A stretch of 46,575 bases of DNA from an uncultured Chthoniobacterales bacterium (GTDB lineage Bacteria; Verrucomicrobiota; Verrucomicrobiia; Chthoniobacterales; Terrimicrobiaceae). The notes under the pieces were generated by a model, which saw only the letters and a program-made list of their open reading frames with translations, was not told the DNA's origin and searched no databases. The stretch is taken from positions 1 to 46,575 of the forward strand of contig CAZSMN010000002.1 in NCBI GenBank assembly GCA_964607615.1, given 5' to 3'. Each line of letters begins with the position of its first letter. Positions within the stretch are counted from its first letter, which is position 1. A program made the translations under genes and the position numbers. Positions 18,111 through 46,575 of the stretch are shown piece after piece.

Positions 18111-18178
18111 AAGTATGAGTTGGTTAAAAAGGGGTGGCCTGCCGCTCGCCGGCGGGGCGTGCGGCAGGCGGGGCTGGG

Positions 18179-27727: not shown

Positions 27728-29053
27728 ATGGCCGGTGGTCCTGAAATCGATTTGGTTCAGGCCACCATGAAGACTGAATTACAGAACCATCCCAACGCTT
27801 CCGGGGCGGCGTGGGCTACGCCTGCCGCTTCCGCACGACATCCTGAGCCGGGAGCCGCGCCGCATGACGGCGATGCGGTCGAGGCGGAGATCACCGAGAT
27901 GTTGGCAAGGGTCGACGTGATCGTCGGCGGAGAGCGGCCGTGGGACATCCATGTCCATGACCGGAGATTTTTCCGGCGCCTGCGGGCGCATGGCACGCTG
28001 GGCTTCGGCGAAGCCTACATGGAGGGCTGGTGGGATTGTGCCGATCTGGAGGAGATGTGCTACCGCTGCATCAGCGCGCATATCGATGAGAAGCTGACGC
28101 CGAATGTGAAGACGATCGTCGAGGTCGCCTTCTCCGGCCTTCTGCACCTGCATTCGCGCCGGAAGCAGGACGAGGGATGCACCGGCCACTACGATCTCGG
28201 CAACGATTTCTTTGCCGCGATGCTGGATCCCGCGATGCAGTATTCCTGCGCCTACTTCGAGGGGACGGCCGATCTTGCGCTGGCGCAGCGGATGAAGATG
28301 GATCTGATCTGCCGCAAGCTTGGGCTCCGGCCCGGGATGCGGGTTCTGGATATCGGGTGCGGGTGGGGAGGCCTTGCCAAATACGCCGCGGAGAATTTCG
28401 GCTGTTCGGTGACGGGCATCACGCTGTCGGAGAAGCAGCGGTCATTCGCCGAGAAGCTGTGTTCGGGGCTGCCGGTCGAGATCCGGCTTCAGGACTACCG
28501 CGAGGTGTCGGAGGAGTTTGACCGCGTGGTGAGCGTGGGCATGCTCGAGCATGTGGGCTTTCACAACTATCGGAAGTTCATGGAGGTGGCGGACCGCTGC
28601 CAGAAGCCGGACGGACTTTTCCTCTGCCACACGATCGCGTCGAACAATTCGAGCGGCATCACCGACCCGTGGATTACGCGCTACATATTTCCCAACTCAA
28701 TGCTCCCTTCTGCCGCCATGGTGCTGGAGGCCTCGGAAGGGCTCTTTGTTCTCGAGGATGTGCAGAATCTCGGCACGCATTACGCGCCGACGCTCTGCGA
28801 GTGGGAGCGGTCGTTCTCCAAGTCGCGCGAGCAGTTTCATGCCCGCTTCGGGGAGCAGTTCCTGCGCATGTGGAGGCTTTACCTCCTCAGCTGTTCCGCG
28901 GCGTTCCGCGCCCGGAGCCTGCAGGTGTTTCAGTTCCTGTTTTCCAAGACAGGCTCTTCGATGGGCCACCTCAATTCGCTTTCCTACCGGGATGCCCGGC
29001 TGATGGATCATGAGGCCGTCTCACGGGTGAACTCCGGAGCGCGCGAACTTTAG
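27728..29053 (+). CDS. cfa: Cyclopropane-fatty-acyl-phospholipid synthase
   Basis: Collinear with E. coli Cfa as I recall it: HYDLGNDFF..MLDP.MQYSCAYF, GMRVLDIGCGWGGLAKY, RVVSVGMLEHVG, DPWI.RYIFPNS.LPS, AFRARSLQVFQF. The start is uncertain (ATG at 27728 or 27767). Confidence 0.93.
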   Translation: MAGGPEIDLVQATMKTELQNHPNASGAAWATPAASARHPEPGAAPHDGDAVEAEITEMLARVDVIVGGERPWDIHVHDRRFFRRLRAHGTLGFGEAYMEGWWDCADLEEMCYRCISAHIDEKLTPNVKTIVEVAFSGLLHLHSRRKQDEGCTGHYDLGNDFFAAMLDPAMQYSCAYFEGTADLALAQRMKMDLICRKLGLRPGMRVLDIGCGWGGLAKYAAENFGCSVTGITLSEKQRSFAEKLCSGLPVEIRLQDYREVSEEFDRVVSVGMLEHVGFHNYRKFMEVADRCQKPDGLFLCHTIASNNSSGITDPWITRYIFPNSMLPSAAMVLEASEGLFVLEDVQNLGTHYAPTLCEWERSFSKSREQFHARFGEQFLRMWRLYLLSCSAAFRARSLQVFQFLFSKTGSSMGHLNSLSYRDARLMDHEAVSRVNSGAREL

Positions 29054-32083: not shown

Positions 32084-32103
32084 GGCGGTGCGTGGCAGGG
32101 TCC

Positions 32104-33864
32104 TCACTGTCCCCGGTGCTTCTCTTTTGGCAATCCGCGAATCTTTGCCGGGCTTGCTGCTGCCGGCTTTTCTGCGCAGACCTTGTCCAGAAGGAGGCTC
32201 AGGTCCTGAAGGTCAATCGGCTTGGAAATATACTCCGTCATTCCCATAGCGAGGAACCTCTCGCGGTCGCCGCGCATGGCAAAGCCCGTCATCGCAATCA
32301 CAGGAAGGGCGGGGTCGGTCTTGCCCGCTTTGCCCGAGCGGATGACTCCGGTGGCGGTGATCCCGTCGATGTCCGCCATCTGGAGGTCCATCAGCACGCA
32401 GTCAAACGTCTCTTTGGCGAGGGCAGACAGGGCCTCGCTTCCGCTGGAGACGCACGTCACGAAATGCCCCATCTTTTCCAGAGCGAGCTCAAGCGTCATC
32501 AGGTTGATGGCATCATCCTCGGCAGCGAGAATGCGGAGCGGCTGACGGGGCGTGGCCGGGCCGGCGGGGCGCATCGGGTCGGCCGGGAGTTCGGCGGCGG
32601 ATTTATGCAGAGGCAGGGTGACTGTGACAGTGGTGCCCTGGCCCACGAGGCTCCGGATCTCCAAGGTTCCCTGCATGACCGCCGCGAGGCGCTTGCTGAT
32701 GGCAAGCCCCAGCCCGACGCCCTTGTAGGGCCGGTTGTCGCCGGCAGGGGCCTGGATGAAGGGCTGGCAGACATAGCCGAGCATCGCCGGGGGAATGCCA
32801 ATGCCGGAGTCCTCCACGGCAAGGATCACGGTTTCGAGCGACGGTTCCCGGGAAGGCGCACGGGTCGCGGTGATCTTGATCCTGCCGCGGTCAGTGAATT
32901 TCATGGCGTTGCCGACCAGGTTGAAAAGGATCTGCCGGATGCGCAGGCTGTCGCCGGTCAGCACCTTCGGGATCTCCGGTGCCAGAGCGAACTCGAGAGG
33001 AATTTTTTTCTCGCGCGCGACGGGCTCGAACGTCTCGGCAATCGCCTCGAAGATGTCGGCCAGCCGGAAGGGCATCTCGTTGAGAATCGTCCGTCCGGCC
33101 TCGATCCGGGAAATGTCCAGAATATCGGAAAGGAGCTCGGTGAGGCGACTGCCGGACCGCAGGGCCATCTCGGTGAGCTTGCGCTGGTCTTCATCGAGGT
33201 GGGACTGGCGGAGAAGCTGCACGACGCCCATGAGGCCGTTGAGCGGGGTCCGGATCTCGTGGCTCACGTTGGCGAGAAACTCGCTCTTGGCGTGGTTGGC
33301 CGACTCGGCGAGCTGGATCGCCTTGGCCAGCTGATCGCCGGCATCCCGTAGCTTCGAGATATCGGCCAGCGTGAGGCGTATCTCGTTCTGTGCCGATAGA
33401 GACAGCTGAAGCTGCACCCAGATGGGGGTGCGCTCCGCGCCGAGGAGCCGCATCTCCGCATACTCCTGCTTGCCCGCCTCCTTGATGCCGTGGCAGAGCC
33501 GGCAGAAGGCGGCCTGATCGTCGGGATGGACGAAGCTGTGGAACGGTTGATTGAGCAACCTCCCCCGGTTTTTCGAGACGAGGCGGGCAAACGCGAAATT
33601 GCTCTCGGTGATGAAGCCGTCGACGCCGAGCGTGACATAGCCGACCGGCGCGAGATCGTAGAGCTCGAAGTAGCGGTTGCGTGAGACCTCGAGCTGCGCC
33701 TGGACGTGGCGGAGCTCCTCATTCTGCAGCTCGAGTTCGACCTGATGGACATGGAGCTCGTGAACGGTCGCCTCGTTGCTGTCGTCCGGCACGCTGCCGA
33801 TCTGCCTCTCGGCGCGCTGGCGCAGGGAGAGATCGTCCGCCGCAGGGGGGGCTTTTTTCTTCAT
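32104..33864 (-). CDS. Hybrid sensor histidine kinase (PAS-HisKA-HATPase-REC)
   Basis: H-box FLANVSHEIRTPLNG, N/G boxes (NLVGNAMKFT, DSGIGIP, GVGLGLAISKRL), and a C-terminal receiver (ILAAEDDAINL..VLMDLQMADIDG). ATG at 33864 (MKKKAPP), or 33915. Confidence 0.9.
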   Translation of the reverse strand: MKKKAPPAADDLSLRQRAERQIGSVPDDSNEATVHELHVHQVELELQNEELRHVQAQLEVSRNRYFELYDLAPVGYVTLGVDGFITESNFAFARLVSKNRGRLLNQPFHSFVHPDDQAAFCRLCHGIKEAGKQEYAEMRLLGAERTPIWVQLQLSLSAQNEIRLTLADISKLRDAGDQLAKAIQLAESANHAKSEFLANVSHEIRTPLNGLMGVVQLLRQSHLDEDQRKLTEMALRSGSRLTELLSDILDISRIEAGRTILNEMPFRLADIFEAIAETFEPVAREKKIPLEFALAPEIPKVLTGDSLRIRQILFNLVGNAMKFTDRGRIKITATRAPSREPSLETVILAVEDSGIGIPPAMLGYVCQPFIQAPAGDNRPYKGVGLGLAISKRLAAVMQGTLEIRSLVGQGTTVTVTLPLHKSAAELPADPMRPAGPATPRQPLRILAAEDDAINLMTLELALEKMGHFVTCVSSGSEALSALAKETFDCVLMDLQMADIDGITATGVIRSGKAGKTDPALPVIAMTGFAMRGDRERFLAMGMTEYISKPIDLQDLSLLLDKVCAEKPAAASPAKIRGLPKEKHRGQ

Positions 33865-34028
33865 AGGGGAGGGGAGGGAGCGTCTGGCCGGAGCATGTCG
33901 CATACAAACGGGCATAACAACCCCGGCGATCGTGAGTCTCCATGGGGTAAGAACCCTACCATCTCCCGGTCACTTGGTGGGGTTTCGCCCCATGTCCGCG
34001 CAGGGAGCCGCGCGACAGAGTGCAAGAC

Positions 34029-34787
34029 ATGCACAGAAACACCTCGTGCGAAGTTATCCCTTTCGATTCTCCCGATGCCGAGCCGGAGGCCGATGCCGTG
34101 AGAGAGCTGGAGGCGTTCAGCTACTCGGTCTCCCACGATCTCCGCTCTCCGCTGCGGCACATCACGTGCTTTGTGGAGCTTCTTCAGAACGATCCCGAGC
34201 TCCGCGTGACCCCTGCGCAGCGGCACCGCCTCGACACCATAGCCGAAGAGGCGGCGCGGATGGGCGAGCTGATCGATCATCTGCTCGCCTTCTCGCGCAT
34301 CGGGCGCTCGGAGATGAACAGGAGCCGGGTCGATCTCAATGTGCTGGTCCGGGAGGCAAGGCAGGATCTCGCCGCCGAATGTGAAAACCGCACGATCCGC
34401 TGGTCGGTCGACGAACTGCCGACCGTGATCGCCGACCACTCCCTGCTGCGCCAGGCTTTTGTCAACCTGCTGTCGAACGCCATAAAGTTCACATCGAAAA
34501 AGAAGGTGGCGCGGATCCGGATCGAGTGCCTCAGCGAGGGGCCGGCGGACGTTGTCATCTCCGTGAAGGACAACGGGGCGGGGTTTGATCCCGCCTACAA
34601 ATCCAAGCTCTTCGGCGTCTTTCAACGGCTGCACCCGAACGATGAATTTGAGGGCTTCGGGATCGGCCTCGCGAACGTGCATCGGATTATCCACCGGCAC
34701 GGGGGAAGGACATGGGCGGATGGCGCGGTGGGCGCCGGGGCGAGGTTCTCCTTTTCGCTCCCGGTTTCCGCGGGGGGAGCGCCATGA
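34029..34787 (+). CDS. Sensor-less histidine kinase (phytochrome-partner-type HisKA/HATPase core)
   Basis: H-box ELEAFSYSVSHDLRSPLRHI, followed by NLLSNAIKFT, DNGAGFD and GIGLANVHRII. ATG at 34029 (GTG at 34020 is possible). Confidence 0.85.
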   Translation: MHRNTSCEVIPFDSPDAEPEADAVRELEAFSYSVSHDLRSPLRHITCFVELLQNDPELRVTPAQRHRLDTIAEEAARMGELIDHLLAFSRIGRSEMNRSRVDLNVLVREARQDLAAECENRTIRWSVDELPTVIADHSLLRQAFVNLLSNAIKFTSKKKVARIRIECLSEGPADVVISVKDNGAGFDPAYKSKLFGVFQRLHPNDEFEGFGIGLANVHRIIHRHGGRTWADGAVGAGARFSFSLPVSAGGAP

Positions 34788-35284
34788 GTGACGCCTGCAG
34801 AATTCTCCTGGTCGAGGATGATCCTGCCGACCTCGAGCTCACGCTTTCCGCTCTCTCGCGGTATGGCCTTGCCGAGCGCACGGTTGCGGTGAACTCCGGC
34901 GATGCGGCCCTCGATTACCTGTACCGGCGCGGCCGCTGGCGCGCGGGCCGGTCTGTCGAACCGGCCATCGTCCTTCTCGACCTCAAGATGCCGAAGGTAA
35001 GCGGATTCGACGTGCTGGCGGCCATCCGTTCCGAGCCTCACCTTCATGGTCTTCCGGTTGTTATCTTCACCTCTTCGGCGGAGAAATCGGACGTTCGTGC
35101 GTGCTATCGTGCCGGTGCGAGCGGGTATGTCGTGAAGCCGGGGGATCTCGAGAAATTCGTCACGGCGGTGCAAAATATCGTGCGCTTCTGGCTGCAGACG
35201 AACGTCCCGCCCCCGCTGTCAACAGGGCTTCCGCGGCGCCTTTCAAGGGCCAGAGCCGATGAAGCGGCTCTTCCTGTGAAATGA
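34784..35284 (+). CDS. Single-domain (Rcp1/CheY-like) response regulator
   Basis: ILLVEDDPADLEL.., VLLDLKMPKVSG, PVVIFTSS and GASGYVVKP. The ATG overlaps the upstream stop (ATGA). Confidence 0.9.
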   Translation: MSDACRILLVEDDPADLELTLSALSRYGLAERTVAVNSGDAALDYLYRRGRWRAGRSVEPAIVLLDLKMPKVSGFDVLAAIRSEPHLHGLPVVIFTSSAEKSDVRACYRAGASGYVVKPGDLEKFVTAVQNIVRFWLQTNVPPPLSTGLPRRLSRARADEAALPVK

Positions 35285-36519
35285 CGGAGCACCCCCATCT
35301 TCTGCATCTGGAGGACGACCCGATCGATGTCGAGCTGGTGCGCCTGCGTTTGGAGGCCGATGGCCTCCGGTGCACGATCCATGCGGTGCAGACGCGGAGG
35401 GACTTCCGTTCGGCGCTCGCCGCCGGCGGGATCGATCTCGTATTGGCGGACTACCGCTTGCCGGGCTTTGATGGCATGGAGGCTCTTTCAATGGTCAAGG
35501 AGATCGCTCCCGATCTTCCGTTCGTTCTCGTCTCGGGCTTTATCGGGGAGGAGTCTGCGGTTGAGGTGCTGAAGAGCGGCGCGACCGACTACATCCTCAA
35601 AGACCGGATGTCGCGGCTTGCTCCGGCGGTCCGCCGCGCGCTGGACGAGGCCCGCACGGGCCGCGAGGCCCGTGTGGCGCGTGAACTGGCGACGCGCTCG
35701 CAGAAGATGGAGATCTTTGCCCAGCTCGCCGGCGGCCTCGCGCACGACTTCAACAACATCCTGACGGTGATCGCTGCGAACTGCGGGCTTCTCCTAGAGA
35801 AGCTGCCTGCAAGAAGTGCCGCCCACAGCTACGCCGAACAGGCGGAGTCGGCGGCGGAGAAGGCTTCCGCCCTGGTCCGCCAGCTGCTGGTATTCAGCCG
35901 GCATGAGAGTCCGGCACCCGTGGAGTTTGACCTCAACGAACTCGTCGACACTTCGCAGAAGCTCCTCCGGCGCCTCCTCCCGAAGATGACGGCCCTCCAC
36001 GTTTGTCCTGCCCCGTCGGGGCTCGTCATCGTCGCCGATCCCGGCCGCGTCGAGCAGGTCCTGATGAACCTCGTCCTCAACGCGCGCGATGCCATGCCGG
36101 ATGGCGGCACGATCGAGGTCGCCACCGGCCGCGTGGCCCTCGACAGCGGCGACCCCGGCCTGCCTCCGGGAAATCTCGTTTCGCTGAGCGTCACCGATAC
36201 CGGCACGGGTATGACCGATGAGGTCAAGGCCAGGCTTTTTGAGCCCTTCTTCACAACGAAACCGCCCGGCGCCGGCACGGGCCTCGGCCTCATCACCTGC
36301 CAGCGGATCATCACAGAAGCCGGCGGCCGGATTTTGGCCTCCAGCGAACCGGGCAAAGGCTCGACCTTCACCGTGCTCCTCCCGGCGGCAGCCGTTCGGG
36401 AGCGTCCGGTCCGGGTCCTAGCCTCCCGCACCGCCCTTCCCGAGGAGGGCAAAAATGGCCTCGCGGAACCGGGTGATGGAAAACGGCTTTCCAAGAAACC
36501 CGGAGTGCTCGATGCGTGA
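35281..36519 (+). CDS. REC-HisKA-HATPase hybrid histidine kinase
   Basis: N-terminal receiver (LLHLEDDPIDVEL.., LVLADYRLPGFDG), H-box FAQLAGGLAHDFNNILT, and ATPase boxes (NLVLNARDAM, DTGTGM, GTGLGLITCQRI). ATGA overlap with the upstream gene. The last ~34 codons overlap the convergent regulator gene. Confidence 0.9.
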   Translation: MTEHPHLLHLEDDPIDVELVRLRLEADGLRCTIHAVQTRRDFRSALAAGGIDLVLADYRLPGFDGMEALSMVKEIAPDLPFVLVSGFIGEESAVEVLKSGATDYILKDRMSRLAPAVRRALDEARTGREARVARELATRSQKMEIFAQLAGGLAHDFNNILTVIAANCGLLLEKLPARSAAHSYAEQAESAAEKASALVRQLLVFSRHESPAPVEFDLNELVDTSQKLLRRLLPKMTALHVCPAPSGLVIVADPGRVEQVLMNLVLNARDAMPDGGTIEVATGRVALDSGDPGLPPGNLVSLSVTDTGTGMTDEVKARLFEPFFTTKPPGAGTGLGLITCQRIITEAGGRILASSEPGKGSTFTVLLPAAAVRERPVRVLASRTALPEEGKNGLAEPGDGKRLSKKPGVLDA

Positions 36520-36828
36520 GGCCTGAAGGACCGCGTCGGAGTCTGGCGTGCCGGAGATGAAGAGCACGGGGGTCCGGATCCCGCGCTTCCGCAGTCCTTC
36601 GATGAAATCGATCCCGCTGGCATTGGGGAAGCGGTAGTCGCAGATGATGAGCCCGATGGCGGGATCCGTAGCGGCCTCCTCGGCGGAGGACGGGTCGAGC
36701 CGCAGCATCAGCCGCACGGTGTTCATGCTCTCGGTCAGCGCCCTCAGGGTGCAGAGCACGTCCGGGTCGTCGTCAACGATGAGGATGGGTGGCAGTCGGG
36801 TAATCGAGGGGTTGTGCAGTGTTTTCAT
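36418..36828 (-). CDS. REC-only response regulator
   Basis: ILIVDDDPDVLCTL.., GLIICDYRFPNASG, PVLFISGT and GFLGKPFS. It is the last gene of the polysaccharide gene train. Confidence 0.85.
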   Translation of the reverse strand: MKTLHNPSITRLPPILIVDDDPDVLCTLRALTESMNTVRLMLRLDPSSAEEAATDPAIGLIICDYRFPNASGIDFIEGLRKRGIRTPVLFISGTPDSDAVLQASRIEHSGFLGKPFSITRFREAIFALLGKGGAGG

Positions 36829-38008
36829 GGGGTCGGAAGGATCTTATCGTTTGGCTGTTTTCCGGGGATCTGCCGAGCAGCTGCGCGTGGAGGATGTGGA
36901 GGATCTTTGCGGCCGCGCGGCCGTCGCCATAGATGCTCGAGCCGGCGGTCATCTTCTCGCGTTCCTCCTGCGAGGAGAGGAGGAGGTCGGCCGCGTCGAA
37001 GACATCGTCCGCCGCGGTTCCGACCAGGCGGAGCGTGCCGGCCCGGACGCCTTCGGGACGCTCGGTCTCCCGTCGCAGCACGAGGACGGGCTTGCCCAGG
37101 GCGGTCGCCTCTTCCTGCACGCCGCCGGAATCCGAAAGCACCAGATAGGCCCGCTGGAGCACGGAGAGGAAGGCGTCATAGTCGAGCGGCTCGCAGAGCC
37201 TGACCTGACCTTTGGCGGCGAGGATGGGAACGATGGCCTCGCGGACAGCGGGATTCGGATGCAGAGGGAGGAGCACGCGGAGCCGTTCGTGCCGGTCGCA
37301 GAGCCGGGCGATCGCGCGGGCCACATTGACCATCGGCTGTCCGAGGTTCTCGCGGCGGTGGATGGTGACGAGGATCAGGCGTTCGTCCGGTTCGAGGTCA
37401 TCGAGCAGCGGACAGGGAAGATCCTTGAGCCGCGCGACCATCCAGTGCAGCGCATCGACGACGGTGTTTCCGCAGACGTGGATATCCTGCGGGGCGATGC
37501 CCTCGGCCAGAAGCTCCGCACGGGAGTTCTCAGTCGGCGCAAAATGCCAGGCGGCCAGACGCCCGAGCAGCACGCGGTTGAGCTCTTCGGGGAAGGGAGA
37601 GTAGCGGTCGTGCGACCTCAGCCCGGCCTCGACGTGGGCGACCGGGATCTTGTGGTAGAACGCGCAGAGGGCGCCGATCAAGGCGCTCGTCGTGTCGCCC
37701 TGTACCACCACCGCTTCAAAGTGTGTTCGGTGAAAAAGGGAGCCCAGCCCGGTCGAGAGATTTGCGGTGAGATCCCAGAGCGACTGCCTCGGACGCATCA
37801 CATCGAGGTCGATATCCGGCACGAGCCCGAAGCTGTCGAGGACGCGCGTGACCATCTCCCGGTGCTGGGAGGTCGAGATGATGACCGGAGCGAGCTCCGA
37901 GGAGGCGGCGAGCGCGAGGATGACCGGAGCGAGCTTGATCGCCTCCGGACGCGTGCCGACGATGATGGCGACCGGCTTGCGGTGCCCGTTGTGGGAGTGG
38001 TTGTTCAT
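36773..38008 (-). CDS. wecB: UDP-N-acetylglucosamine 2-epimerase (non-hydrolysing)
   Basis: VAIIVGTRPEAIKLAPV, HVEAGLRSHDRYSPFPEE.NR, LVTIHRRENLG and SDSGGVQEEA..LGKPVLVLR are the canonical epimerase_2 blocks. The ATG overlaps the upstream stop (ATGA). Confidence 0.9.
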   Translation of the reverse strand: MNNHSHNGHRKPVAIIVGTRPEAIKLAPVILALAASSELAPVIISTSQHREMVTRVLDSFGLVPDIDLDVMRPRQSLWDLTANLSTGLGSLFHRTHFEAVVVQGDTTSALIGALCAFYHKIPVAHVEAGLRSHDRYSPFPEELNRVLLGRLAAWHFAPTENSRAELLAEGIAPQDIHVCGNTVVDALHWMVARLKDLPCPLLDDLEPDERLILVTIHRRENLGQPMVNVARAIARLCDRHERLRVLLPLHPNPAVREAIVPILAAKGQVRLCEPLDYDAFLSVLQRAYLVLSDSGGVQEEATALGKPVLVLRRETERPEGVRAGTLRLVGTAADDVFDAADLLLSSQEEREKMTAGSSIYGDGRAAAKILHILHAQLLGRSPENSQTIRSFRPHENTAQPLDYPTATHPHR

Positions 38009-40674
38009 GGTCGTGGCTGAAGTTGGAATTTTGCCCCGGCGCCGTCGCAGCGCTCGTAGACCTCGGTGAGATCGTCGGCGGTCGGCAGCTGCCGCAGGCC
38101 GAAGACCGGGCAGCTGCCATCGACTTCGGAAAGGAAGATGCCGGATCGCTCCGGGAATCCCGGCGCGAGCACGCCGGCGGTTTTCAGCAGAGGGTGCGGC
38201 GTGGCATTCCGTCGGCAGGCGGTGAGCCCGGACGTCGCGAGCAGGCCGTCCCAGATCTGCTCCCGGGTGAGAACATTAAGCTGGATCAGCAGGTGGTCGA
38301 TCGGGCCGGCAATGAGCTTCTGCATCGCTTTCACGCGCTCCATGCCTTCCTCCGAGAGCATCCGTTCGTTTCTCAGCCATCCCAGAAGCGCGTTCTCGGC
38401 GAGGCGGAGCTCCATGAACTTGCGCCAGAGCCGCCGGAAGACGGGCGGCGAACCGGCACAGAGGGATACCTTGTGTGAGATCTCGATGCGTTGGAGGACG
38501 TCGGGATGGACAGATTCTCCCACCGCCACCAGGCCGCCGATGAGCGGGACAAGAAGATGGACTTCGCAGAAAAGGCAGCCCCAGCGGGAGGCTTGCTCGG
38601 TATCGATCGCCCGTGCGCTGAGGTCGGCCGGCGAGACGCCGAGATGCTTTGCAAACAGATGGCTGGCCTCCTGCTCGCTGATGATGTTCAGGCTGATCAG
38701 CGCATCCGCCAGGGACCGCCGCCGGGTAAACTGGAACTCAAGAACCGCCCTCTGATCCTCCGGCCGCAGCGTGCGGAGCACGCTTTCGAAACAGTCGTAG
38801 CCTGTTTTCTTGAGGCTCCGCCTCGGATACAGGTTCTGCCGCAGGCAAAGGAGGTTTGTCGGCCGTCCAAGAAAAACGCGGATGGGATTTCCGACAACGG
38901 CGGAGACCCGGTCAACGTCCTCCCGGGACGGAGGCTCCTCGAAGAGGAATCCGACCGCCTCGCTTTCCTTGTTCCCGCAGGGCATCGCATGGTAGTGGAC
39001 GGCATATTCTTCCGTCCAGACGTCCAGACGTTCCACGGGCACATCACCGGGTATGACGAGCTGCGGGGGAAGCCCGGAGAACCTCGACCAGATGCCGGTG
39101 AACTGCTCCTCGTCGATCAGGTTCATCCTGAGAAGGGCCTCGGGCGCGGAGAATCCGGCGTGCTCGGACATGATCTTCTCGAGCGCCGGCCGCTCGATCA
39201 AGCCCTCTTCCACGATGAGGTCTTCGACCGACCGGGTGAACTCCGCCAGCGTCGCCTCATCCGGGAATGCGTGCGTCGTCTTGGTCCACGCAAGCGGGCG
39301 GTTGAAAAACCGGTGCCCCGCGTACAGCCATCCGGCGCGGAGGGTGGCGCTCATGTTCACGACGTTCACCACCGGGTAGCGAAGGATCGCAAAGAGGGCG
39401 AGGCGGAGGCCGTAGATCTCCGAGACGAAAGCGACCTTCTGGGCGACCCGGTAAACGAGAAGCGCTGTATCCACGAGAACGATCCTCCAGAGCAGACCCT
39501 CGGGGGTGAAGAGCGGACGCAGGAAGATCGAGTTGCGCCACTCCAGGTGCAGCAGGATAAACTCGGCCAGCACGTAAAGGATCACGATGTAGCCGGCGGC
39601 GTTGATACAATGGACAAGCGGCGCGCGCCGGTCGCGGACGAGCGTGTATTTCACGGCGGCAGAGCCCCACCATCCGCCGCGCTCCCAGCCCTGGAAGGCC
39701 GTGCCGACAATCCAGCGCGCCTTCTGTTTGACCGCATGGCGGAAGGTGGTTGGAAAATTCTCGCGCACTGCGACGGGCTCGCTGACCATCCGCGTGCCGG
39801 TGACGTTGCCCTTGGGATCCCTGGTTTTCACCTCGCGCTCGACGTAGAAGTCGACAAACCCCGCGCGGAACCCGCTCCGGCAGAGCTCGAGGCCCATCAT
39901 GTAATCCTCCGCGAGGTTGCCGACCTGGAAGGGGCCTCCGCCATGCTTCTCGTCGAGAAAGTCGAGCGCCTTGCGGGAGATGGCAGTGCCGACCCCGGCC
40001 GAGGGAACGACCCCGCCCATCACCTCGCGGGAATACATGTCCTTCATGTGCCACTCGGAGAACTCATCCATGTAGGTGTTGCCGACCCAGTATTTCCAGG
40101 GGTCGAGCTCGAGCGGGAAGACCGGGATCTGCCCCATGTCGAAGGTCCGCGGGACGTGGTAGTTGTAAACCTTGAGGGTGAGCGGGTGGATGATGTCCTC
40201 CGCATCATGGAGCGCAATGATGCGGTATTCGCGCCGGCCTGCGACCTCGTGGGCCTTCATCGCCTCGAAGATCGCGTTGAGGCAGTCGGCCTTTGACGTC
40301 GGCCCGTTACTTTTGGTGACCGCCTTGTGGATCCTGGGATTCGACGCGACGAGCAGGTCGACGCACCGGCCCGTTTCCGCGTCGTTCGGATAGACGCCGA
40401 TGAAGATGTCGTAGCGGTCGTAGAGGAGGATACGGCTGGCGTAATCCGCCATACGGTTGATGATGCCGCCCTCATTCCATGCGGGGACGAAGATGGCGAT
40501 GAGCTGCTCCGGCTCGTTTTTAAGCTGTTCGAGCGTGACGCTCGGGCGCTTCCGTTTCTTCCGCAGGTACCTCAGGAACTGGAGGTCGAAGAACACATCA
40601 TCGAGGCCGAAAACAAAGAATCCGATCGCTGCGATGTAGGCCAGAACGAGAAAGATGTAATAGAGGATATCCAT
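38005..40674 (-). CDS. nfrB: NfrB-type membrane glycosyltransferase (GT2) with C-terminal T2SSE_N/MshEN-like repeats
   Basis: Collinear with E. coli NfrB as recalled: GLDDVFFD, PAWNEGGII, YDIFIGVYPND, GPTSKADCLNAIF, LHDAEDIIHP, YMDEFSEWHMKD, VPSAGVGTAISR, VRENFPTTFRHAVKQKARWIVGTAFQGW and AWTKTTHAFP. These are followed by ~400 aa of GLIxxxxL-type helical repeats. Confidence 0.85.
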   Translation of the reverse strand: MDILYYIFLVLAYIAAIGFFVFGLDDVFFDLQFLRYLRKKRKRPSVTLEQLKNEPEQLIAIFVPAWNEGGIINRMADYASRILLYDRYDIFIGVYPNDAETGRCVDLLVASNPRIHKAVTKSNGPTSKADCLNAIFEAMKAHEVAGRREYRIIALHDAEDIIHPLTLKVYNYHVPRTFDMGQIPVFPLELDPWKYWVGNTYMDEFSEWHMKDMYSREVMGGVVPSAGVGTAISRKALDFLDEKHGGGPFQVGNLAEDYMMGLELCRSGFRAGFVDFYVEREVKTRDPKGNVTGTRMVSEPVAVRENFPTTFRHAVKQKARWIVGTAFQGWERGGWWGSAAVKYTLVRDRRAPLVHCINAAGYIVILYVLAEFILLHLEWRNSIFLRPLFTPEGLLWRIVLVDTALLVYRVAQKVAFVSEIYGLRLALFAILRYPVVNVVNMSATLRAGWLYAGHRFFNRPLAWTKTTHAFPDEATLAEFTRSVEDLIVEEGLIERPALEKIMSEHAGFSAPEALLRMNLIDEEQFTGIWSRFSGLPPQLVIPGDVPVERLDVWTEEYAVHYHAMPCGNKESEAVGFLFEEPPSREDVDRVSAVVGNPIRVFLGRPTNLLCLRQNLYPRRSLKKTGYDCFESVLRTLRPEDQRAVLEFQFTRRRSLADALISLNIISEQEASHLFAKHLGVSPADLSARAIDTEQASRWGCLFCEVHLLVPLIGGLVAVGESVHPDVLQRIEISHKVSLCAGSPPVFRRLWRKFMELRLAENALLGWLRNERMLSEEGMERVKAMQKLIAGPIDHLLIQLNVLTREQIWDGLLATSGLTACRRNATPHPLLKTAGVLAPGFPERSGIFLSEVDGSCPVFGLRQLPTADDLTEVYERCDGAGAKFQLQPRP

Positions 40675-40680
40675 GGCAAT

Positions 40681-42333
40681 CTACCAGCGGAGGCTGAGCG
40701 AGACGGTGATCCGGAAGTCGGAGTAGGTGGCGCCGGCATTTCCGCGCGAGTTGTTGTCGTTCCGTCCGAGGTAGGCGCCGCCCAAATATTCGAAGTTGCT
40801 CGAGAGGATCGCCCCCGGAAGGGGAGCCGCGAGCAGGCGTACGCCGGGGCCGGCCTCGAAGTAGTTGTCGTAGTAGTTGCCCGCGCTGTCGAAGGTCAAA
40901 TTCTCGACGACGTAGGCATCGGCCGAGAGCGCCCGGCCGCACTGGAGGAATCGGAATCCCTGACGGGATTGGAGGTAGCAGAGAAAGTCGGAAAGCCGCG
41001 TGTAGTAGGCGGCATCCCCGCCGGCCTCGGCGAACCAGTCGAGGCGCAGGCGGAAGGGAGTCGCGGGCTGCCACGACCAGGCGCCCGTACCTTCCACGGG
41101 CCGCATGGCAAGCTGCTCCGCCGTGAGCTCCTGTTCGCCAGCGACGTCGAGCCAACGGCTTCCTGGGCCCCATGCCCACCAGCCGTTGACGCCGGCGATG
41201 AGCTCTGCAAACCAGTCTCCATGGTGATCCTCCGTCCCGAGGAGATCCTTCTGCACGCCGCCGAGAACGTAGAGGACGAAGGTCTGGGAGGCGAAGGGCC
41301 GCACCCGAACACCCGCGTGGAAGCCGGCGAGGTTCTCGTTGTAGATCGTCGTGATGCCCTCACCGGTCTTCGATCCCGTATCGAGCGTGAAATCGGCCTG
41401 CACGAACGGCTCGATCCACCTGGCGCCCGGAACGAATGTTCCTTCGCGGAGCCTGCCGGAGGCGACGCCGATCTGGTAGCGCGTGAGGTAGGTCGCGTAG
41501 AGGTCGAGCTCGCCCCAGAAGTGACGGTCGAGGTTGAGGGCGGGAGCCAGCGCGGCGATCTCGGCGGCGGCGCGGGACCTGGCGGCTGGATCGCTCCCGC
41601 CGCCGCGAATGTTGGCGAAGACCGCGAACGCCTCGGCATGCCTGCCCGATTTTTGCAGGAGGTAGGCAAGCGTGAGCGCCTCGCTGTCGCTGAGGCGTCC
41701 GCGATCGTTCAACTCCTGAAGCACATCGCAGGCCTCGGCGAGCCGGCCCTGCCGCTGGAGAGCATAGGCTTTCTCGATGAGAAGCGGGTCGGTCGCCTCG
41801 CCGCGGCTGGCGAGGGCGTCGACCGCCGTTACGATGGCGTCGTTGTTTTTCTGGGCGACGAGGGTGAAGACGCGCTGCTGCCGGTCAAGGCGCGCCTGAC
41901 GGGCCCGGAGCTCCGCCTGCACGGCCGGATCGGGAGCGGCACCGCCGGTGCCTTTTGCGGCCTCGCGCTCGGCGGCCTCGCTGCGGTCGAGCGCCGCGAG
42001 GCTCGCGCGCGCTTTGGCTGCCATCGTCGCATCCCACGATTTGCCGAGCATCTGGAGGTTCTCGCGGGCGGGGGCCGTCTGTCCGTCAAAAACCTGCTCG
42101 GCGGCGAGCCGGAAGCGGAGGCTCTCGTTTCCGGGTTCCGCCTCGACCAGCGGCCGGAGCACGGCGGCCGCGTCTTTGTGACGCCCGGCGGCGGAGAGCG
42201 TGCCGGCCACCTCGACCGGGTTCGAAAGGGATGGCGGGGGATTCTCCCTGGCCTCCGGCGGGGCGGACGGTTCGGCGGCGGTGCAGGGGGCGAGAAGTGC
42301 GGCGGCCAGGAGAGGCCCGATCATCCGGTTCAT
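40681..42333 (-). CDS. TPR-containing outer-membrane polysaccharide export protein (NfrA/PgaA/BcsC-like)
   Basis: Signal peptide from ATG 42333 (MNRMIGPLLAAALLAPCTA). An Ala/Leu/Arg-rich TPR-like N-terminal half and an aromatic-rich beta-strand C-terminal half ending ..FRITVSLSLRW (terminal aromatic). ATGA overlap with the upstream gene. Confidence 0.6.
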   Translation of the reverse strand: MNRMIGPLLAAALLAPCTAAEPSAPPEARENPPPSLSNPVEVAGTLSAAGRHKDAAAVLRPLVEAEPGNESLRFRLAAEQVFDGQTAPARENLQMLGKSWDATMAAKARASLAALDRSEAAEREAAKGTGGAAPDPAVQAELRARQARLDRQQRVFTLVAQKNNDAIVTAVDALASRGEATDPLLIEKAYALQRQGRLAEACDVLQELNDRGRLSDSEALTLAYLLQKSGRHAEAFAVFANIRGGGSDPAARSRAAAEIAALAPALNLDRHFWGELDLYATYLTRYQIGVASGRLREGTFVPGARWIEPFVQADFTLDTGSKTGEGITTIYNENLAGFHAGVRVRPFASQTFVLYVLGGVQKDLLGTEDHHGDWFAELIAGVNGWWAWGPGSRWLDVAGEQELTAEQLAMRPVEGTGAWSWQPATPFRLRLDWFAEAGGDAAYYTRLSDFLCYLQSRQGFRFLQCGRALSADAYVVENLTFDSAGNYYDNYFEAGPGVRLLAAPLPGAILSSNFEYLGGAYLGRNDNNSRGNAGATYSDFRITVSLSLRW

Positions 42334-43592
42334 TGTTTTGTCAGGCTTTCCATTGGAAGGTTCGGCATGCCGGTCGATTGTGCGGCATCGACGATGTCGC
42401 GCATTTGCTGGAACGGGAGCCATGCGGGGATGGCGACCCCGGCGATGCTGTCCCGCAAGGCGGAGAGGCCGGCGACCTCTCCGGTGAGGGTGCGAAGATG
42501 GACGGCTTCGCCGGTTGGCGGGTTGATATTCAGCGGAAGCACCGGCCAGCCCTCGTCGGTGACGAGGAGCGTCGTGGCGTGGAAGGCGGACCGGGGCTCG
42601 CCGGGCTCGGCCAGCAGGGTGCCGAGCAGATAGCCGTCAGGCTTCGCTGCCAGCGGTGCCGCCGGCTCGATTCCGCCTTCGCCGGGAAGTTCCCAGCCGG
42701 AGGTTGTAATTCCCGCATCGGCGAGGGAGCCGGGAATCGAGGGTGTGACGGCGCCCCGGAGGATGATCCGGCCTCCGTGCGACTGTGCATATTTCAATGC
42801 ACCGACGAAGTCGTCACGAGGCATCAGGCGATCGCCCGGCACGTTGTCGAGTTGGGTCGAGACGACAAAACCGATCCGGCGGGCCGAGAAATAGTCAACG
42901 ATCCGCCGCAGCGCGGCCGGATCCGATCCCGGGTGGAAATTCTGAATCGCGAAGAAGAGCCCGCGCGGACGAGGGGCGGCAATACCATAAAAATCGAGCA
43001 GGAGGTCGGAGAAGAGCGCGGAGGCGGGGAAGGAGCCGGGTAGCGTGCCGAAGCCGTACACCGAACCTGAGCGCCAGATGAGAGGCCGGGGACTGCCTTG
43101 GGGCGTCGCCATGGCCTCGGACGGCTTGCCCGGACCGGGAAAAAAGGGATCGAGCCGCATTTTCCATTCGAGGCCCCGGTAGACGACGGTCGCATTCGCG
43201 ATCACGGCGGGGTAGGCCTTGGGGGCGGGCGCCCCGGCGAGCGGCGTCGCCCAGCCGATGGCAAGGAGCGGCCGGGCGGTCCGAGCCAGGGCTGCCTTCG
43301 CTTCTGGAGCCAGCGATGGAGCGCTGCACATGCCGGCAACGACCAGATAGTCCGCAGCCTCGATGTCTGTCCCGGTCACGGCGTCTGCCGTGTGCGCCAC
43401 GACCGCCGTTCCAAAGCGTGCGAGCATGAGCCGGATCGGGGCGATTTCGTTGACGAGGGAGAACGGCTTGGCCGGCGCATCGTAGATGACAAGCGTCGTT
43501 CGGTTGCCGGCTCCGGCAGCCATTGCCGTCGCCGGAGGTCCGCCAGCGCTTGCAAGGGCCGCACCGATCGTGACGGCGATGAGCGATCTCAT
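42330..43592 (-). CDS. Exported DUF2334-like protein, apparently degenerate paralogue of 18179-19777
   Basis: Signal peptide MRSLIAVTIGAALASA. It has the same layout as the 18179-19777 protein (LVIYDAP.. versus LVLYDND..). The central block FFAIQNFHPGSDPAALRRIVDYFSARRIGFVVS aligns with FFRVEDVSPEADITVLKKVGDTLAAMNVPFTIS. Confidence 0.55.
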   Translation of the reverse strand: MRSLIAVTIGAALASAGGPPATAMAAGAGNRTTLVIYDAPAKPFSLVNEIAPIRLMLARFGTAVVAHTADAVTGTDIEAADYLVVAGMCSAPSLAPEAKAALARTARPLLAIGWATPLAGAPAPKAYPAVIANATVVYRGLEWKMRLDPFFPGPGKPSEAMATPQGSPRPLIWRSGSVYGFGTLPGSFPASALFSDLLLDFYGIAAPRPRGLFFAIQNFHPGSDPAALRRIVDYFSARRIGFVVSTQLDNVPGDRLMPRDDFVGALKYAQSHGGRIILRGAVTPSIPGSLADAGITTSGWELPGEGGIEPAAPLAAKPDGYLLGTLLAEPGEPRSAFHATTLLVTDEGWPVLPLNINPPTGEAVHLRTLTGEVAGLSALRDSIAGVAIPAWLPFQQMRDIVDAAQSTGMPNLPMESLTKQ

Positions 43593-45925
43593 TTGCCGTC
43601 CGCCTTGTTGTTGCCGTTTCCATTGACCTTGCGCCGTGAGGCGACCCTCTGGAGAGCGAAGATGCCGAAGAGGGTGAAGGCGACCGAACCGAGGATGAGG
43701 TGATTGTTGGAGATCGCGGCGAGGCCATCCGCGGCTTTTTCCTTCTGGAGTTTCTCCGTCTCCTCAAGGGATAGCCCGTCCGGGAGGCCTTCCTCGATGT
43801 GTTCTGCGAGCGATGAGGGCTGGAGGTAGCGGGCATCGTAGGCAACGACGCGGTCTTTGGTGTCAACGGCCGCGACCGTTCCGGTGAGGCGATCCCGGAC
43901 CGTGGGCTTCGTGAGCAAGGCAACGGCGGCCTCGCCGCCCAATCCCTCCACGCCACCGACCGTGGCCAGAAGCTCGCCTTTTGTCCATGGCGACACGAGA
44001 AGCTGCGCCAGGCAGAGCGTGCTCTCGATGCTCGAAGCCGGAAGGACCTCGCCGCGGAGGTTGATCGTGCGCTGCTTCTCATCGGATGCCTTCACGGCGA
44101 GGCGGGTTTTCTCCGGCAATGCCTGCGACCACTGGAACACGGAGCCGAGCACGAGACCGGAACGGTTCGCCACGCGGCTGGCTTGCGGAGGATTTCCCGG
44201 GCCGTAGGTCGCCACCTGCGGCCACAAAACAGGCATCGAGGGAAGGTGCGCGCCGAGGAATACGCCAAGGGACTTCAGCAATTCGACACGCTCCCAGTCA
44301 TTTTCCGCGGGCACCATAACGACGGCCCGCCGGAGGAACGCGTCGCGCATCAAGAGCAGGTCGAGACGGCTGAGGTCGCTTATTTTCAGCGGCTCGGTCT
44401 GAATGTTTAACGTCGAGGAGGCGGCCACATTCAGCCACGCCCGCTCATCATTCCGGTGACCGCAATCCACCGTGCCGATATCGAGGTAAGAGGCGAGCTG
44501 GATGCGGGAGGGATCGCGCCCGGGGATACCCTCCGGCACCGGTATCCGCCGCTGTGTGACGGCGGCATTCTCCGCGGTCAGGGCCACACTTCCAATGGAA
44601 ACATCGTTCAGGCGGACATCCAGGGCGGAGGTCTTGTCGAGGTTCTCAGCGTGGCTGAGATCGAGGTTTATAACGCTGCCGGCGGCGATCTGGTAGCCGG
44701 GCGGAAAGCTCCACTGGCGGTCGGCCTCGTTGCGGAAGAGCCCGCGCAGCGTGACGCCTCCATCCGGCATTGATTGGAAGGCGACCGGCAAGCGCGAGGG
44801 GTGGGCGAGTTGCTCCGTGAGAACCGGAACGGCCGGCATTGTGCGGATGATCCACGGGTTTGAGGGAACGGACCCGATCGCGGGGCTGCTCCCGAGGGCC
44901 ATCGCGGCCCTTTCGAGGCCTTCGGCGTCGCCTCCGCTCAGAATCAGCCAGCGGTGCTCGCCGTTGGACGGGCTGCCTGTGATGATCTCAGCGAGGCAGC
45001 CCTCGCCGGGGAGAAGGGTTGAGAGGGTGTCGGCGATGTTCTCCGCAAGAGCGATATCTTTCAGGGTCTTGGCGGTGCCGATCAGGATGCCATTGCGCCG
45101 CTTCGACTCGCCGGCGAAGTCTCCGGTGTCGCCGATTGCGATGCTGTCGCCATCCAAATAGAGAGTCTGAGCCAGCCGTGCCGTGCCGATGAGGAAAGCC
45201 CGGAGGTCGGACTCTGTTGGCGCGTCGGGGACGAGCAAGGCGACAGCGGCCTGGCTTTTGGGTTTCTCGCCTTCCGGCTTTCCGAGATTCATGAGTGCGG
45301 GTTCGGCCAACGAATCCGGAAAGCGCTGAAGCTCGGGGAATAGCGACTGCGGCTCATAGGCCACGCGGAGGTGGCTCCGTGAGTCCATGGAGATCCAGGC
45401 AGCGGGATTATCCACATCGCGGCACGGGACATAGGTCGTTTGCAGGAGGCAGCGGAGCGAAAGCCGGTTCCACCCGGGGATGAGCGCGGACGCATCAAGC
45501 GGGAGGTGGATCTCTTTGCGCTGAGGGGCTGCCGTGGGATCGGTCTGGCCGAGGCGGATGCTCGTGACCGGACGGTCGTTGAGGCTCACGCTGAGCGTCG
45601 AGATATCCGGAAGAAGGATGGGGGAGCTGACGAAGCTGAGAACCAGTTCGGACCCCTGAACGTAGCGAATGTGCTCCGGGAGGCGGATGTAGAGATCCTG
45701 CCCGGCCAACGCTCCCGCAAGCCGCTTCTCGCTGCCGGAGAAGAGGGGGGCGTTAAAAGCCTTGGTTCCGGCGGAGGCCGTCGCGGGAGCGGCTTCCACC
45801 GCCACAGCGGTCGGTGGGATCGCAGGCAGGAGCATCGCTCCCGCAATGCTGCAGAGGAGGGAGAGGCCTCTCTTTGTGCGAAACGTGGTGGGATTTCTTC
45901 CGTTGAGCGGTTTTTGCGTTTTCAT
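43589..45925 (-). CDS. BcsB-like periplasmic subunit with a C-terminal membrane anchor
   Basis: Signal peptide from ATG 45925. Two BcsB-style repeats (ELVLSFVSSPILLPDISTLSVSLNDRPVTSIRL and VINLDLSHAENLDKTSALDVRLNDVSIGSVAL). Single C-terminal TM LILGSVAFTLFGIFALQRV followed by a basic tail. Confidence 0.65.
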   Translation of the reverse strand: MKTQKPLNGRNPTTFRTKRGLSLLCSIAGAMLLPAIPPTAVAVEAAPATASAGTKAFNAPLFSGSEKRLAGALAGQDLYIRLPEHIRYVQGSELVLSFVSSPILLPDISTLSVSLNDRPVTSIRLGQTDPTAAPQRKEIHLPLDASALIPGWNRLSLRCLLQTTYVPCRDVDNPAAWISMDSRSHLRVAYEPQSLFPELQRFPDSLAEPALMNLGKPEGEKPKSQAAVALLVPDAPTESDLRAFLIGTARLAQTLYLDGDSIAIGDTGDFAGESKRRNGILIGTAKTLKDIALAENIADTLSTLLPGEGCLAEIITGSPSNGEHRWLILSGGDAEGLERAAMALGSSPAIGSVPSNPWIIRTMPAVPVLTEQLAHPSRLPVAFQSMPDGGVTLRGLFRNEADRQWSFPPGYQIAAGSVINLDLSHAENLDKTSALDVRLNDVSIGSVALTAENAAVTQRRIPVPEGIPGRDPSRIQLASYLDIGTVDCGHRNDERAWLNVAASSTLNIQTEPLKISDLSRLDLLLMRDAFLRRAVVMVPAENDWERVELLKSLGVFLGAHLPSMPVLWPQVATYGPGNPPQASRVANRSGLVLGSVFQWSQALPEKTRLAVKASDEKQRTINLRGEVLPASSIESTLCLAQLLVSPWTKGELLATVGGVEGLGGEAAVALLTKPTVRDRLTGTVAAVDTKDRVVAYDARYLQPSSLAEHIEEGLPDGLSLEETEKLQKEKAADGLAAISNNHLILGSVAFTLFGIFALQRVASRRKVNGNGNNKADGK

Positions 45926-45986
45926 GTGATGTGGGAAAAATGGCAGGCGTAACCGGTGGGCTGAATAGGGTGAAACCCGCACTCCA

Positions 45987-46574
45987 TTACGGATTCCGGA
46001 GGATCTGCAGGACGGTTGAGGTGGCGGTCCATTTGACGGGGCCGGCTTCAAAATCGGGATTCAGCACGCGGTTGGTGCCGGCAGCCGGACCGAGGAACAC
46101 ATCGTCAAGAAAGAGCGTTCCGGCGGCGCTGGAGTAGGTGTCGGAAAGGCTGAGCCACACCGCCGTGCGCGTTCCGGTGTTGAATGGCGCGCTCGTGTAT
46201 TTGGTCCATGCCGGAGAGCCGTTGCAGCGGACCTGCGCGAGGAGCCTCGTCCAGTTGCTGTTGCCCCAGACCTGAAGCTGCACGGCCCCCGTTCCTTTTG
46301 CCCAGACGGAGGCCACGCAGGTCGTATTCGGGGCGACGCTCACCTTTTGGTAGAGATCTCTCCAGGTGGCCTTGGATCCGATGACGGCCTTCACCCCCCA
46401 GACGCCACTGTGGGTATTTGTTGCGATGCTGCCGGGCGTGGCGGTTGGCGTCGGGGAGACCGTCGGGGACGGGGAAGCGGTGGGTGAGGGGGTGGGGCTT
46501 GGTAACGGGGTCGGAGTAGCGGTCGGAGTAGCGGTCGGAGTAGCGGTCGGAGTAGCGGTCGGAGTAGCGGTCGG
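45987..46574 (-). CDS. C-terminal part of a secreted protein: Pro/Thr linker plus CBM_4_9-like carbohydrate-binding domain (5' end outside the window)
   Basis: The frame is open to the window edge with no stop codon in it between 46395 and 46574. It encodes (PTAT)n..PTPSPTASPSPTVSPTPTATPGS, then WAKGTGAVQLQVWGNSNW..WTKYTSAPFNTG..LFLDDVFL, typical of galactose-binding-like CBMs. Confidence 0.65.
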   Translation of the reverse strand, partial: PTATPTATPTATPTATPTATPTPLPSPTPSPTASPSPTVSPTPTATPGSIATNTHSGVWGVKAVIGSKATWRDLYQKVSVAPNTTCVASVWAKGTGAVQLQVWGNSNWTRLLAQVRCNGSPAWTKYTSAPFNTGTRTAVWLSLSDTYSSAAGTLFLDDVFLGPAAGTNRVLNPDFEAGPVKWTATSTVLQILRNP

Positions 46575-46575
46575 A
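46509..46575 (-). repeat. Perfect 12-nt tandem repeat GGTCGGAGTAGC x5.6, coding for (PTAT)n, running off the window
   Basis: Read directly: copies at 46509, 46521, 46533, 46545 and 46557, plus a partial copy at 46569. All are identical. Confidence 0.95.

Follow-up and report, generated by a model that had tools for sequence, protein, structure and literature searches.

How is a synthase-dependent exopolysaccharide machine switched on when its synthase no longer carries the binding signature for cyclic di-GMP (c-di-GMP)? The cellulose, poly-N-acetylglucosamine (PNAG), alginate, Pel and Nfr machines are textbook c-di-GMP targets. The question is raised by a gene cluster in a 46,575-nucleotide stretch of DNA, hereafter the window (contig CAZSMN010000002.1, positions 1 to 46,575, assembly GCA_964607615.1), from an uncultured Chthoniobacterales bacterium, where six minus-strand open reading frames (ORFs) form an unbroken chain at positions 36418-45925. 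They encode, in gene order, a BcsB homologue, a DUF2334-like periplasmic protein, an exporter candidate made of tetratricopeptide repeats (TPRs) and a beta-barrel, a family 2 glycosyltransferase (GT2) of the NfrB family, WecB and a receiver-only response regulator. With boundaries read from the sequence, the successive junctions measure -4 (ATGA), -4 (ATGA), +6, -4 (ATGA) and -56 nucleotides. This order and these sizes are exactly those given in an earlier note on this DNA, which had also identified all six genes correctly, as judged by Pfam and NCBIfam matches, profile comparison and structure modeling; its proposal of a synthase-dependent secretion system is likewise supported. The GC content is even throughout the cluster, with no composition break. 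Taken as a whole, the locus, which belongs to a Verrucomicrobiota genome near Terrimicrobiaceae, is probably best explained as one operon that encodes an Nfr-type, synthase-dependent exopolysaccharide machine coupled to a receiver protein.

In the mechanism that we propose, WecB would act as a non-hydrolysing 2-epimerase converting UDP-N-acetylglucosamine (UDP-GlcNAc) into UDP-N-acetylmannosamine (UDP-ManNAc), the inner-membrane NfrB-family GT2 would polymerize the sugar and thread the chain across the membrane, and the membrane-anchored BcsB homologue would take over the chain in the periplasm. There, the degenerate DUF2334-like protein would serve as a scaffold or polymer-binding partner rather than as a deacetylase. 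The short TPR plus beta-barrel protein would export the chain through the outer membrane, and the phosphorylatable single-domain receiver encoded at the operon end would couple synthesis to neighboring histidine kinases.

We compared the synthase with Escherichia coli NfrB, with which it shares 33% identity over 684 residues (E = 6e-105). It scores 412.7 bits on the NCBIfam model NF011305 (cut-off 409) and 435 bits on the NfrB equivalog model, below the cut-off of 1170 set for the latter. The protein consists of an N-terminal membrane helix, the GT2 domain, a membrane region and a long cytoplasmic tail, and the GT2 active-site columns HD, (T/A)ED and QxxRW are kept in an alignment of 119 relatives. 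By its sequence, the tail appears to hold MshEN/GSPII-like repeats that are homologous to the MshEN region of NfrB and degenerate, without the c-di-GMP-binding signature. The Pfam MshEN model (PF05157) does not pass in the window synthase itself; it does pass in three relatives (P0003, P0057 and P0119), one of which is 61% identical to the window synthase.

The loss of the signature can be followed residue by residue. The Gly of the RLG element is kept even in the relaxed pattern of the c-di-GMP motif, and its mutation abolishes binding in MshE (Wang et al. 2016, PMC5013675); in E. coli NfrB, exchange of the equivalent Gly (G491L) caused the strongest defect (PMC8669469). The positions of E. 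coli L490-G491 are occupied by V-E in the window synthase and by I/V and E, with Glu in place of the Gly, in 115 of its 119 relatives. A strict RLG regular expression matched nothing, nor does it fit motif I of the E. coli protein (RPLG...); we used the published relaxed motif (Wang et al. 2016) with E. coli NfrB as the positive control. It matches twice in E. coli NfrB, in none of 120 database relatives and in none of 21 loci of the clade; of the remaining NfrB-type synthases in our collection, about two thirds contain it. On the c-di-GMP motif model NF053729 (cut-off 38), the window synthase reaches 23.3 bits. All five clade members tested stay below the cut-off at 17-29 bits (23, 25, 17, 29 and 29), and all four of the other, proteobacterial NfrB-type proteins exceed it with 66, 77, 160 and 163 bits.

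The receiver gene at the end of the chain, by contrast with the motif, is preserved. Its product matches PF00072 with 63 bits, and the residues DDD 19-21, Asp64 (CDYRFP), Ser92 (ISG) and Lys114 (KPF) are intact and conserved in seven orthologues. These orthologues show 57-64% identity, are as conserved as the synthase, and are encoded directly after WecB in L001, L008, L009, L010, L014, L020 and L021 among the 92 loci that we examined; an eighth locus holds a copy with 36% identity. A receiver-only gene of 124-136 codons is also found in each of L089-L092, loci that were picked solely for the length of available DNA, and in L092 its position is upstream, in divergent orientation, beside a WecB gene that has been relocated. 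In total, a receiver gene accompanies the cluster in 13 loci. A same-strand receiver gene follows 11 of 39 synthases that lack the motif and 0 of 44 that contain it (Fisher p 1e-4, uncorrected for phylogeny and descriptive only). A hand count that adds L070 and L073, in which the end of the synthase ORF directly adjoins or runs into the receiver ORF, raises the former figure to 13 of 39. In these two loci (L070:4381-6208 from a Bacteroidota metagenome-assembled genome (MAG) and L073:9887-11765 from an Ignavibacteria MAG), a tail-less synthase of 476 or 495 residues is preceded by a short TPR-barrel gene and directly followed by the receiver-only gene. The pairing of an NfrB-family synthase that has no c-di-GMP module with a receiver-only gene may have had an independent origin in Bacteroidota and Ignavibacteria.

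Because the receiver is conserved and the c-di-GMP motif is lost, we infer that control by phosphorylation may have taken the place of control by c-di-GMP, possibly via the degenerate MshEN-like tail. That a receiver protein might replace or supplement c-di-GMP control had been raised in the earlier note, and the clade-wide motif loss together with the conserved receiver strengthens the idea. The note had also stated that the window has no GGDEF or EAL gene; indeed, a scan of about 30 window ORFs revealed no GGDEF, EAL or PilZ domain, and neither GGDEF nor EAL is among the precomputed Pfam matches of the called genes in eight annotated contexts. Pseudomonas nfr operons often end in a GGDEF gene (PMC8669469). 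A candidate phosphodonor for the receiver is the hybrid histidine kinase encoded convergently to it. In L001 and L020, the receiver gene is followed immediately by a convergent homologue of this kinase (53% and 49% identity), and in L089 a gene with the precomputed Pfam architecture REC-HisKA-HATPase-REC occupies the same position; the kinase is absent from other loci. A more specific scheme, in which the tail no longer binds c-di-GMP and instead docks the phosphorylated receiver, such that histidine kinases switch synthesis on post-translationally, is possible, and we put it forward tentatively, with more doubt than confidence.

The synthase could instead still be activated by c-di-GMP, through non-canonical MshEN-like repeats or an unlinked receptor, with the receiver serving only the adjacent two-component genes. 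The homology of the tail to the NfrB MshEN region and the passing MshEN matches in relatives fit this explanation, as do the high conservation of the tail within the clade, which implies a function, the kinase genes next to the receiver, and the clusters of L003 and L005, which have no receiver gene. It is difficult to reconcile with a Glu at the position of a Gly required even in the relaxed motif, or with the uniform failure of NF053729 in the clade. Moreover, the receiver gene remains in clusters in which it has no kinase gene beside it, none having been found in L008, L009, L014 and L021 and none being annotated in L090 and L091, and it also persists in the rearranged L092. We consider continued c-di-GMP activation rather unlikely, if a serious contender. 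Phosphorylation control, which we prefer, has several observations to its disadvantage. The motif loss extends to L003 and L005, versions of the cluster without a receiver gene, and the two features are hence not strictly coupled. The tail keeps a strongly conserved alternative motif in the clade, (R/K)S(I/V)EDLLVEEG, which could bind c-di-GMP or another ligand non-canonically. The adjacent kinase genes could be the ones that the receiver serves. Finally, a distant receiver copy in a Chthoniobacterales MAG (L019:14949-15404) has Ser for the acceptor Asp and Ala for the conserved Lys, and by these exchanges appears to be a pseudo-receiver in the same cluster position.

We next consider the polymer. 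WecB matches TIGR00236 with 436 bits (cut-off 210) and PF02350 with 358 bits, and the start of its gene overlaps the synthase stop by 4 nucleotides. The WecB gene directly follows the synthase gene in at least 12 relatives and lies upstream of the cluster in L092. Linkage of WecB to an Nfr synthase has been argued to mark the use of UDP-ManNAc (Junkermeier and Hengge 2021, PMC8669469), and E. coli genetics tie WecB to the Nfr glycan (PMC8669469, PMC8669472). Given this argument and the overlap of the two genes, it is reasonable to assume that the product would be a ManNAc-type amino-sugar polymer, as had been predicted from the sequence. The assignment is consistent, by analogy, with the Listeria Pss system, in which a GT2 and a BcsB orthologue make a beta-1,4-ManNAc backbone. 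A polymer not based on ManNAc, with WecB acting in another pathway and the synthase using UDP-GlcNAc or another donor, would agree with the WecB-less cluster of the Limisphaerales locus L005, where the substrate inference is weaker and our reading suffers accordingly, and with the fact that the substrate of the NfrB family lacks chemical proof even in E. coli (PMC8669469, PMC8669472). The gene overlap, the recurrent position of WecB after the synthase and the E. coli genetics all argue against it, and we regard a different polymer as improbable.

The BcsB homologue was readily recognized by the Pfam model PF03170 (130 bits), which bears out the family assignment that had been marked for checking. 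An alignment of 15 sequences of the BcsB-like family, compared with E. coli BcsB by hhalign, gave a probability of 99.0% (E = 6e-18) over 579 columns, with residues 63-691 of the window protein spanning residues 83-715 of E. coli BcsB. Its hydrophobic segments at 20-38, a signal-like N-terminus, and at 743-761, a C-terminal membrane anchor, enclose a periplasmic body. A search of the PDB with the single sequence had returned only a chance match, and the identity was resolved by the profile comparison.

The second periplasmic component is related to DUF2334 proteins, of which Bacillus YdaL is one. Homology of the window protein to DUF2334, which had been suspected before, is evident in profile comparisons, and the copy is degenerate: it scores 21.2 bits on PF10096, under the gathering cut-off of 26. 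The profile of its family matches a bona fide DUF2334 protein encoded in the same cluster position in the Limisphaerales locus L005 with an hhalign probability of 99.9% (E = 1.5e-37), and an intact paralogue in the window (18179-19831) with 94.9%. In an AlphaFold2 (AF2) model (pLDDT 84.5), an N-terminal alpha/beta domain precedes a deacetylase-type (beta/alpha) barrel; the best fold matches of the model are the deacetylase part of human NDST1, generic TIM barrels and a CE4 chitin deacetylase. We aligned 15 bona fide DUF2334 proteins from the examined loci and found near-invariant RxED, Asp, HGxxH, DxEF, Arg, His, Arg, Asp, Glu and His columns. These signature columns are gone in all 26 members of the subfamily to which the window protein belongs; the DxEF segment is deleted, and at the retained positions the window protein has A, Q, N, R, T, G, T, T, L and P. 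Since the conserved Asp, His, Glu and Arg residues of true DUF2334 proteins are lost, the protein is probably a non-catalytic pseudoenzyme or scaffold, as far as its residues can tell.

An active de-N-acetylase in the role of PgaB, IcaB or PelA, yielding a partly deacetylated cationic polymer, would have the homology to DUF2334 and the fold resemblance to NDST1 and a CE4 enzyme in its favor, as well as the bona fide DUF2334 genes beside NfrB-family synthases in other phyla, of which the aligned ones keep their signature residues, and an unmarked Pfam match to PF10096 in the DUF2334 copy of L092. With the Arg, the Asp/Glu and the four His columns missing from 26 of 26 subfamily members, we find this role quite improbable for the cluster protein. 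A further point against a polymer that escapes deacetylation is the intact paralogue, 18 kb away, which could deacetylate the same polymer in trans. This second DUF2334 gene (minus strand) scores 145 bits on PF10096 with all signature residues kept, and a search of the PDB with its product gave no match. It adjoins a glmS-type gene (16266-18293, minus strand) with GATase and SIS domains, and in L012, L020 and L090 similar intact DUF2334 copies are found no more than 10 kb from the cluster.

The exporter candidate was characterized mainly by structure prediction, as Pfam gives weak TPR matches only. Its AF2 model (pLDDT 80) contains a signal helix, a TPR-like solenoid at residues 39-260 and 12 strands at 272-549, ending in the C-terminal sequence ...SLSLRW. 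A periplasmic TPR region is fused to a C-terminal beta-barrel in this model, as in the BcsC, PgaA, PelB and AlgK-E exporters. The best Foldseek match is E. coli BcsC (9b8a, E = 6.9e-9), and matches to NanC and other 12-strand porins and to PelBC (9h80) were also obtained. The count of 12 strands is a prediction and the loops of the model have low confidence, which tells somewhat against the export function that we assign to it. The earlier note had listed NfrA_C among the assignments to be confirmed, and here it failed: the exporter has no match to NfrA_C (PF13283) at E <= 0.1, its profile aligns to E. coli NfrA with a non-significant hhalign probability of 5.7%, and a hidden Markov model (HMM) of the barrel alone does not reach NfrA-type proteins. 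On these three results, we reject NfrA_C membership. With the barrel-only HMM, the same barrel was found in Legionella, Acidobacteria, Bacteroidota, Ignavibacteria and Coxiellaceae, there upstream of NfrB-family synthases. An iterated search starting from NfrA converged on the same exporter ORFs; given that the barrel-only HMM misses NfrA-type proteins, we ascribe this convergence to the TPR repeats. As modeled, the exporter represents a separate family and would be a functional analogue of NfrA, sharing the combination of TPRs and a barrel.

Is this assembly peculiar to one genome? Relatives of the synthase, about 890 residues long, number in the hundreds, the named ones coming from Terrimicrobiaceae, Spartobacteria, Chthoniobacterales, Limisphaerales and Methylomirabilota; the contig collection contained no exact match to the window synthase. 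A comparative map of the gene order, a check proposed earlier for Verrucomicrobia, revealed that the order of the cluster recurs in at least 17 distinct Verrucomicrobiota loci with 42-66% synthase identity, and is therefore far from chance. BcsB-like, DUF2334-like, TPR-barrel and GT genes follow one another in L001, L003, L005, L008, L009, L011, L012, L014, L019-L021 and L089-L092; wherever the flanking DNA of a Verrucomicrobial locus extends far enough, this order is kept, and WecB comes next in most cases. Proteobacterial loci show (WecB)-NfrB-NfrA-YbcH instead. Mixed forms occur in other phyla: two delta/proteobacterial MAGs and Legionella worsleiensis have BcsB-like genes adjoining NfrB-family synthases, and intact DUF2334 genes take such a position in Rhizomicrobium, Dyella, Omnitrophota, Kofleriaceae, Baltobacteraceae and others. 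For Achromobacter, a cluster of nfrA, nfrB and wecB that also contains a BcsB homologue has been on record since 2021 (Sellner et al. 2021, PMC8669472). The recurrent Verrucomicrobial order, the mixed forms and the Achromobacter precedent together indicate that the locus represents a conserved accessory set of Nfr-type systems and no one-off chimera, and the unique merger of three systems that had been claimed for it does not hold. A recent chimera of Bcs, Bacillus Yda/Pss and Nfr operons, suggested by the best-known relatives of the components, is highly improbable for an arrangement that is old and stable across Verrucomicrobiota, has BcsB-like and DUF2334 partners in many phyla, shows no composition break and contains no BcsA/PilZ, GH8 or degenerate GGDEF component in the cluster by Pfam and NCBIfam.

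We compared the locus with systems for which a product or a genetic role has been reported. The E. coli N4 receptor glycan system, comprising NfrB-NfrA-YbcH, WecB (NfrC) and DgcJ (PMC8669469, PMC8669472), has a synthase of the same family with DxD/TED/QxxRW motifs. It shares with the window locus the synthase layout, in which a GT2 domain and a membrane region are followed by a cytoplasmic MshEN-like tail, the linkage to WecB, a partner made of TPRs and a barrel, and the synthase-dependent logic. The gene order is reversed in the window, with the accessory genes and the exporter upstream of the synthase, and the BcsB homologue and the DUF2334-like protein stand in place of YbcH. The exporter has 550 residues and no NfrA_C domain, whereas NfrA has 990 residues and contains one. 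The c-di-GMP motif is absent, and a receiver-only gene is found where Pseudomonas operons have a GGDEF gene. We considered YbcH as an equivalent of the DUF2334-like protein and rejected it: YbcH is a DUF4434 protein (PF14488) without similarity to the DUF2334-like protein, and an iterated search with YbcH retrieved nothing in the window.

The Achromobacter xylosoxidans cluster (Sellner et al. 2021, PMC8669472) likewise combines WecB and a BcsB homologue with a synthase of the NfrB family. It has NfrA and O-acetyltransferases, and its description, by which we set it apart, mentions no DUF2334-like protein, receiver or motif loss. Listeria PssA-E and Bacillus YdaJKLMN (PMC4125290, PMC13492145, PMC13274460) pair a GT2 with a BcsB-type partner (PssD/YdaN), as found here, and the sugar of the Listeria backbone is the one predicted for our locus. 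These Gram-positive systems have no outer-membrane exporter; they are controlled by PssE/YdaK, a c-di-GMP receptor with a degenerate GGDEF domain, and include the glycoside hydrolase YdaJ/PssZ. We looked for counterparts of the latter two and found no GGDEF or glycoside hydrolase domain in the cluster and window. Their synthase is, by description, a short GT2 without an MshEN-like tail, and the window synthase fits NfrB-family models best. The cellulose system BcsA-BcsB-BcsC resembles the locus in its full-length BcsB with a C-terminal anchor and in BcsC, the best fold match of the exporter; the window cluster differs from it in lacking BcsA/PilZ and BcsZ, with neither a PilZ nor a cellulose-synthase match by Pfam, and in a barrel that is predicted to be smaller. 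The PNAG (PgaABCD) and Pel systems share a GT2, a TPR-porin, a periplasmic protein with a deacetylase fold and an N-acetylhexosamine polymer. They are under c-di-GMP control, and the deacetylase-fold protein of the window lacks the catalytic-type residues.

A widespread clade that combines the whole machine, a lost nucleotide signature and a dedicated receiver would offer a natural setting in which to study how such synthases are turned on, and may show what the MshEN fold does once c-di-GMP binding is gone. The Nfr system, known only from work on E. coli phage N4, comes with at least two accessory sets, one of YbcH and a long NfrA and the other of a BcsB-like protein, a DUF2334-like protein and a short TPR-barrel exporter. 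This bears on how genes for biofilms and surface glycans are annotated in Verrucomicrobiota, Legionella, Acidobacteria and others, and makes the degenerate DUF2334 protein a candidate pseudoenzyme scaffold.

The features of the locus are collected in Table 1. A promoter scan found no sigma-70-like site, and an Rfam scan of the window no riboswitch or other RNA. Terminator-like matches numbered 13, near the expectation of 8.3 +/- 3.5 from shuffled sequences, and all fall within coding sequence.

Table 1. Features of the exopolysaccharide locus and its immediate neighbors (window coordinates)
Feature	Position	Strand	Remarks
3' part of upstream gene, runs off the window	45987..46575	-	ORF reading
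BcsB homologue	43589..45925	-	778 aa
DUF2334-like periplasmic protein	42330..43592	-	420 aa
TPR + beta-barrel exporter candidate	40681..42333	-	550 aa, from the ATG giving a 4-nt overlap
NfrB-family GT2 synthase	38005..40674	-	889 aa
Synthase C-terminal regulatory region	38005..39264	-	residues ~471-889
WecB	36773..38008	-	411 aa
Receiver-only response regulator	36418..36828	-	136 aa
Convergent hybrid histidine kinase (REC-HisKA-HATPase)	35281..36519	+	Pfam matches

The partial gene upstream of the chain ends 61 nucleotides before the BcsB homologue, as had been stated. It encodes a Pro/Thr-rich linker and a C-terminal domain of about 135 residues; a carbohydrate-binding module had been proposed for its product. 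We found no Pfam or NCBIfam family in this ORF, and its PDB matches are driven by the linker only, none being significant; the label is unproven. Its membership in the operon is uncertain, and the gene upstream of the BcsB homologue varies among L001, L003 and L005. The linker (PTATPTAT...) turns the DNA at 46400-46575 into a short-period repeat. A gene for a methyltransferase resembling cyclopropane-fatty-acid synthase (CMAS; 27728-29053, plus strand) has counterparts with 55-61% identity near the cluster in L001 (21364-22587), L003 (3196-4377) and L012 (3413-4867), in the latter two directly upstream of the BcsB homologue.

On the other side of the chain, the convergent hybrid kinase and receiver ORFs overlap by 102 nucleotides at their 3' ends, and the part of the kinase C-terminal to its HATPase domain may result from read-through. 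Farther along, at 29099-33915 (minus strand), a CheB-CheR fusion with PAS domains (1002 residues) overlaps a PAS-HisKA-HATPase-REC hybrid kinase by 4 nucleotides; with two more kinase genes, one at 34020-34787 and the other the convergent hybrid kinase, they form a dense signaling block beside the cluster.

Elsewhere in the window, two tandem pairs of an Orn/Lys/Arg decarboxylase and an amino-acid permease (2498-6155 and 6789-10840, minus strand) look like a duplicated acid-resistance-type module, and are followed by an OprB-family porin (10468-11853, minus strand). A segment of about 1.5 kb at 11850-13350 has a GC content of 0.51, compared with about 0.63, and contains no convincing ORF or Rfam match. 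At 22460-23980 (minus strand), a single ORF joins a LigB-type dioxygenase domain to an AMMECR1 domain.

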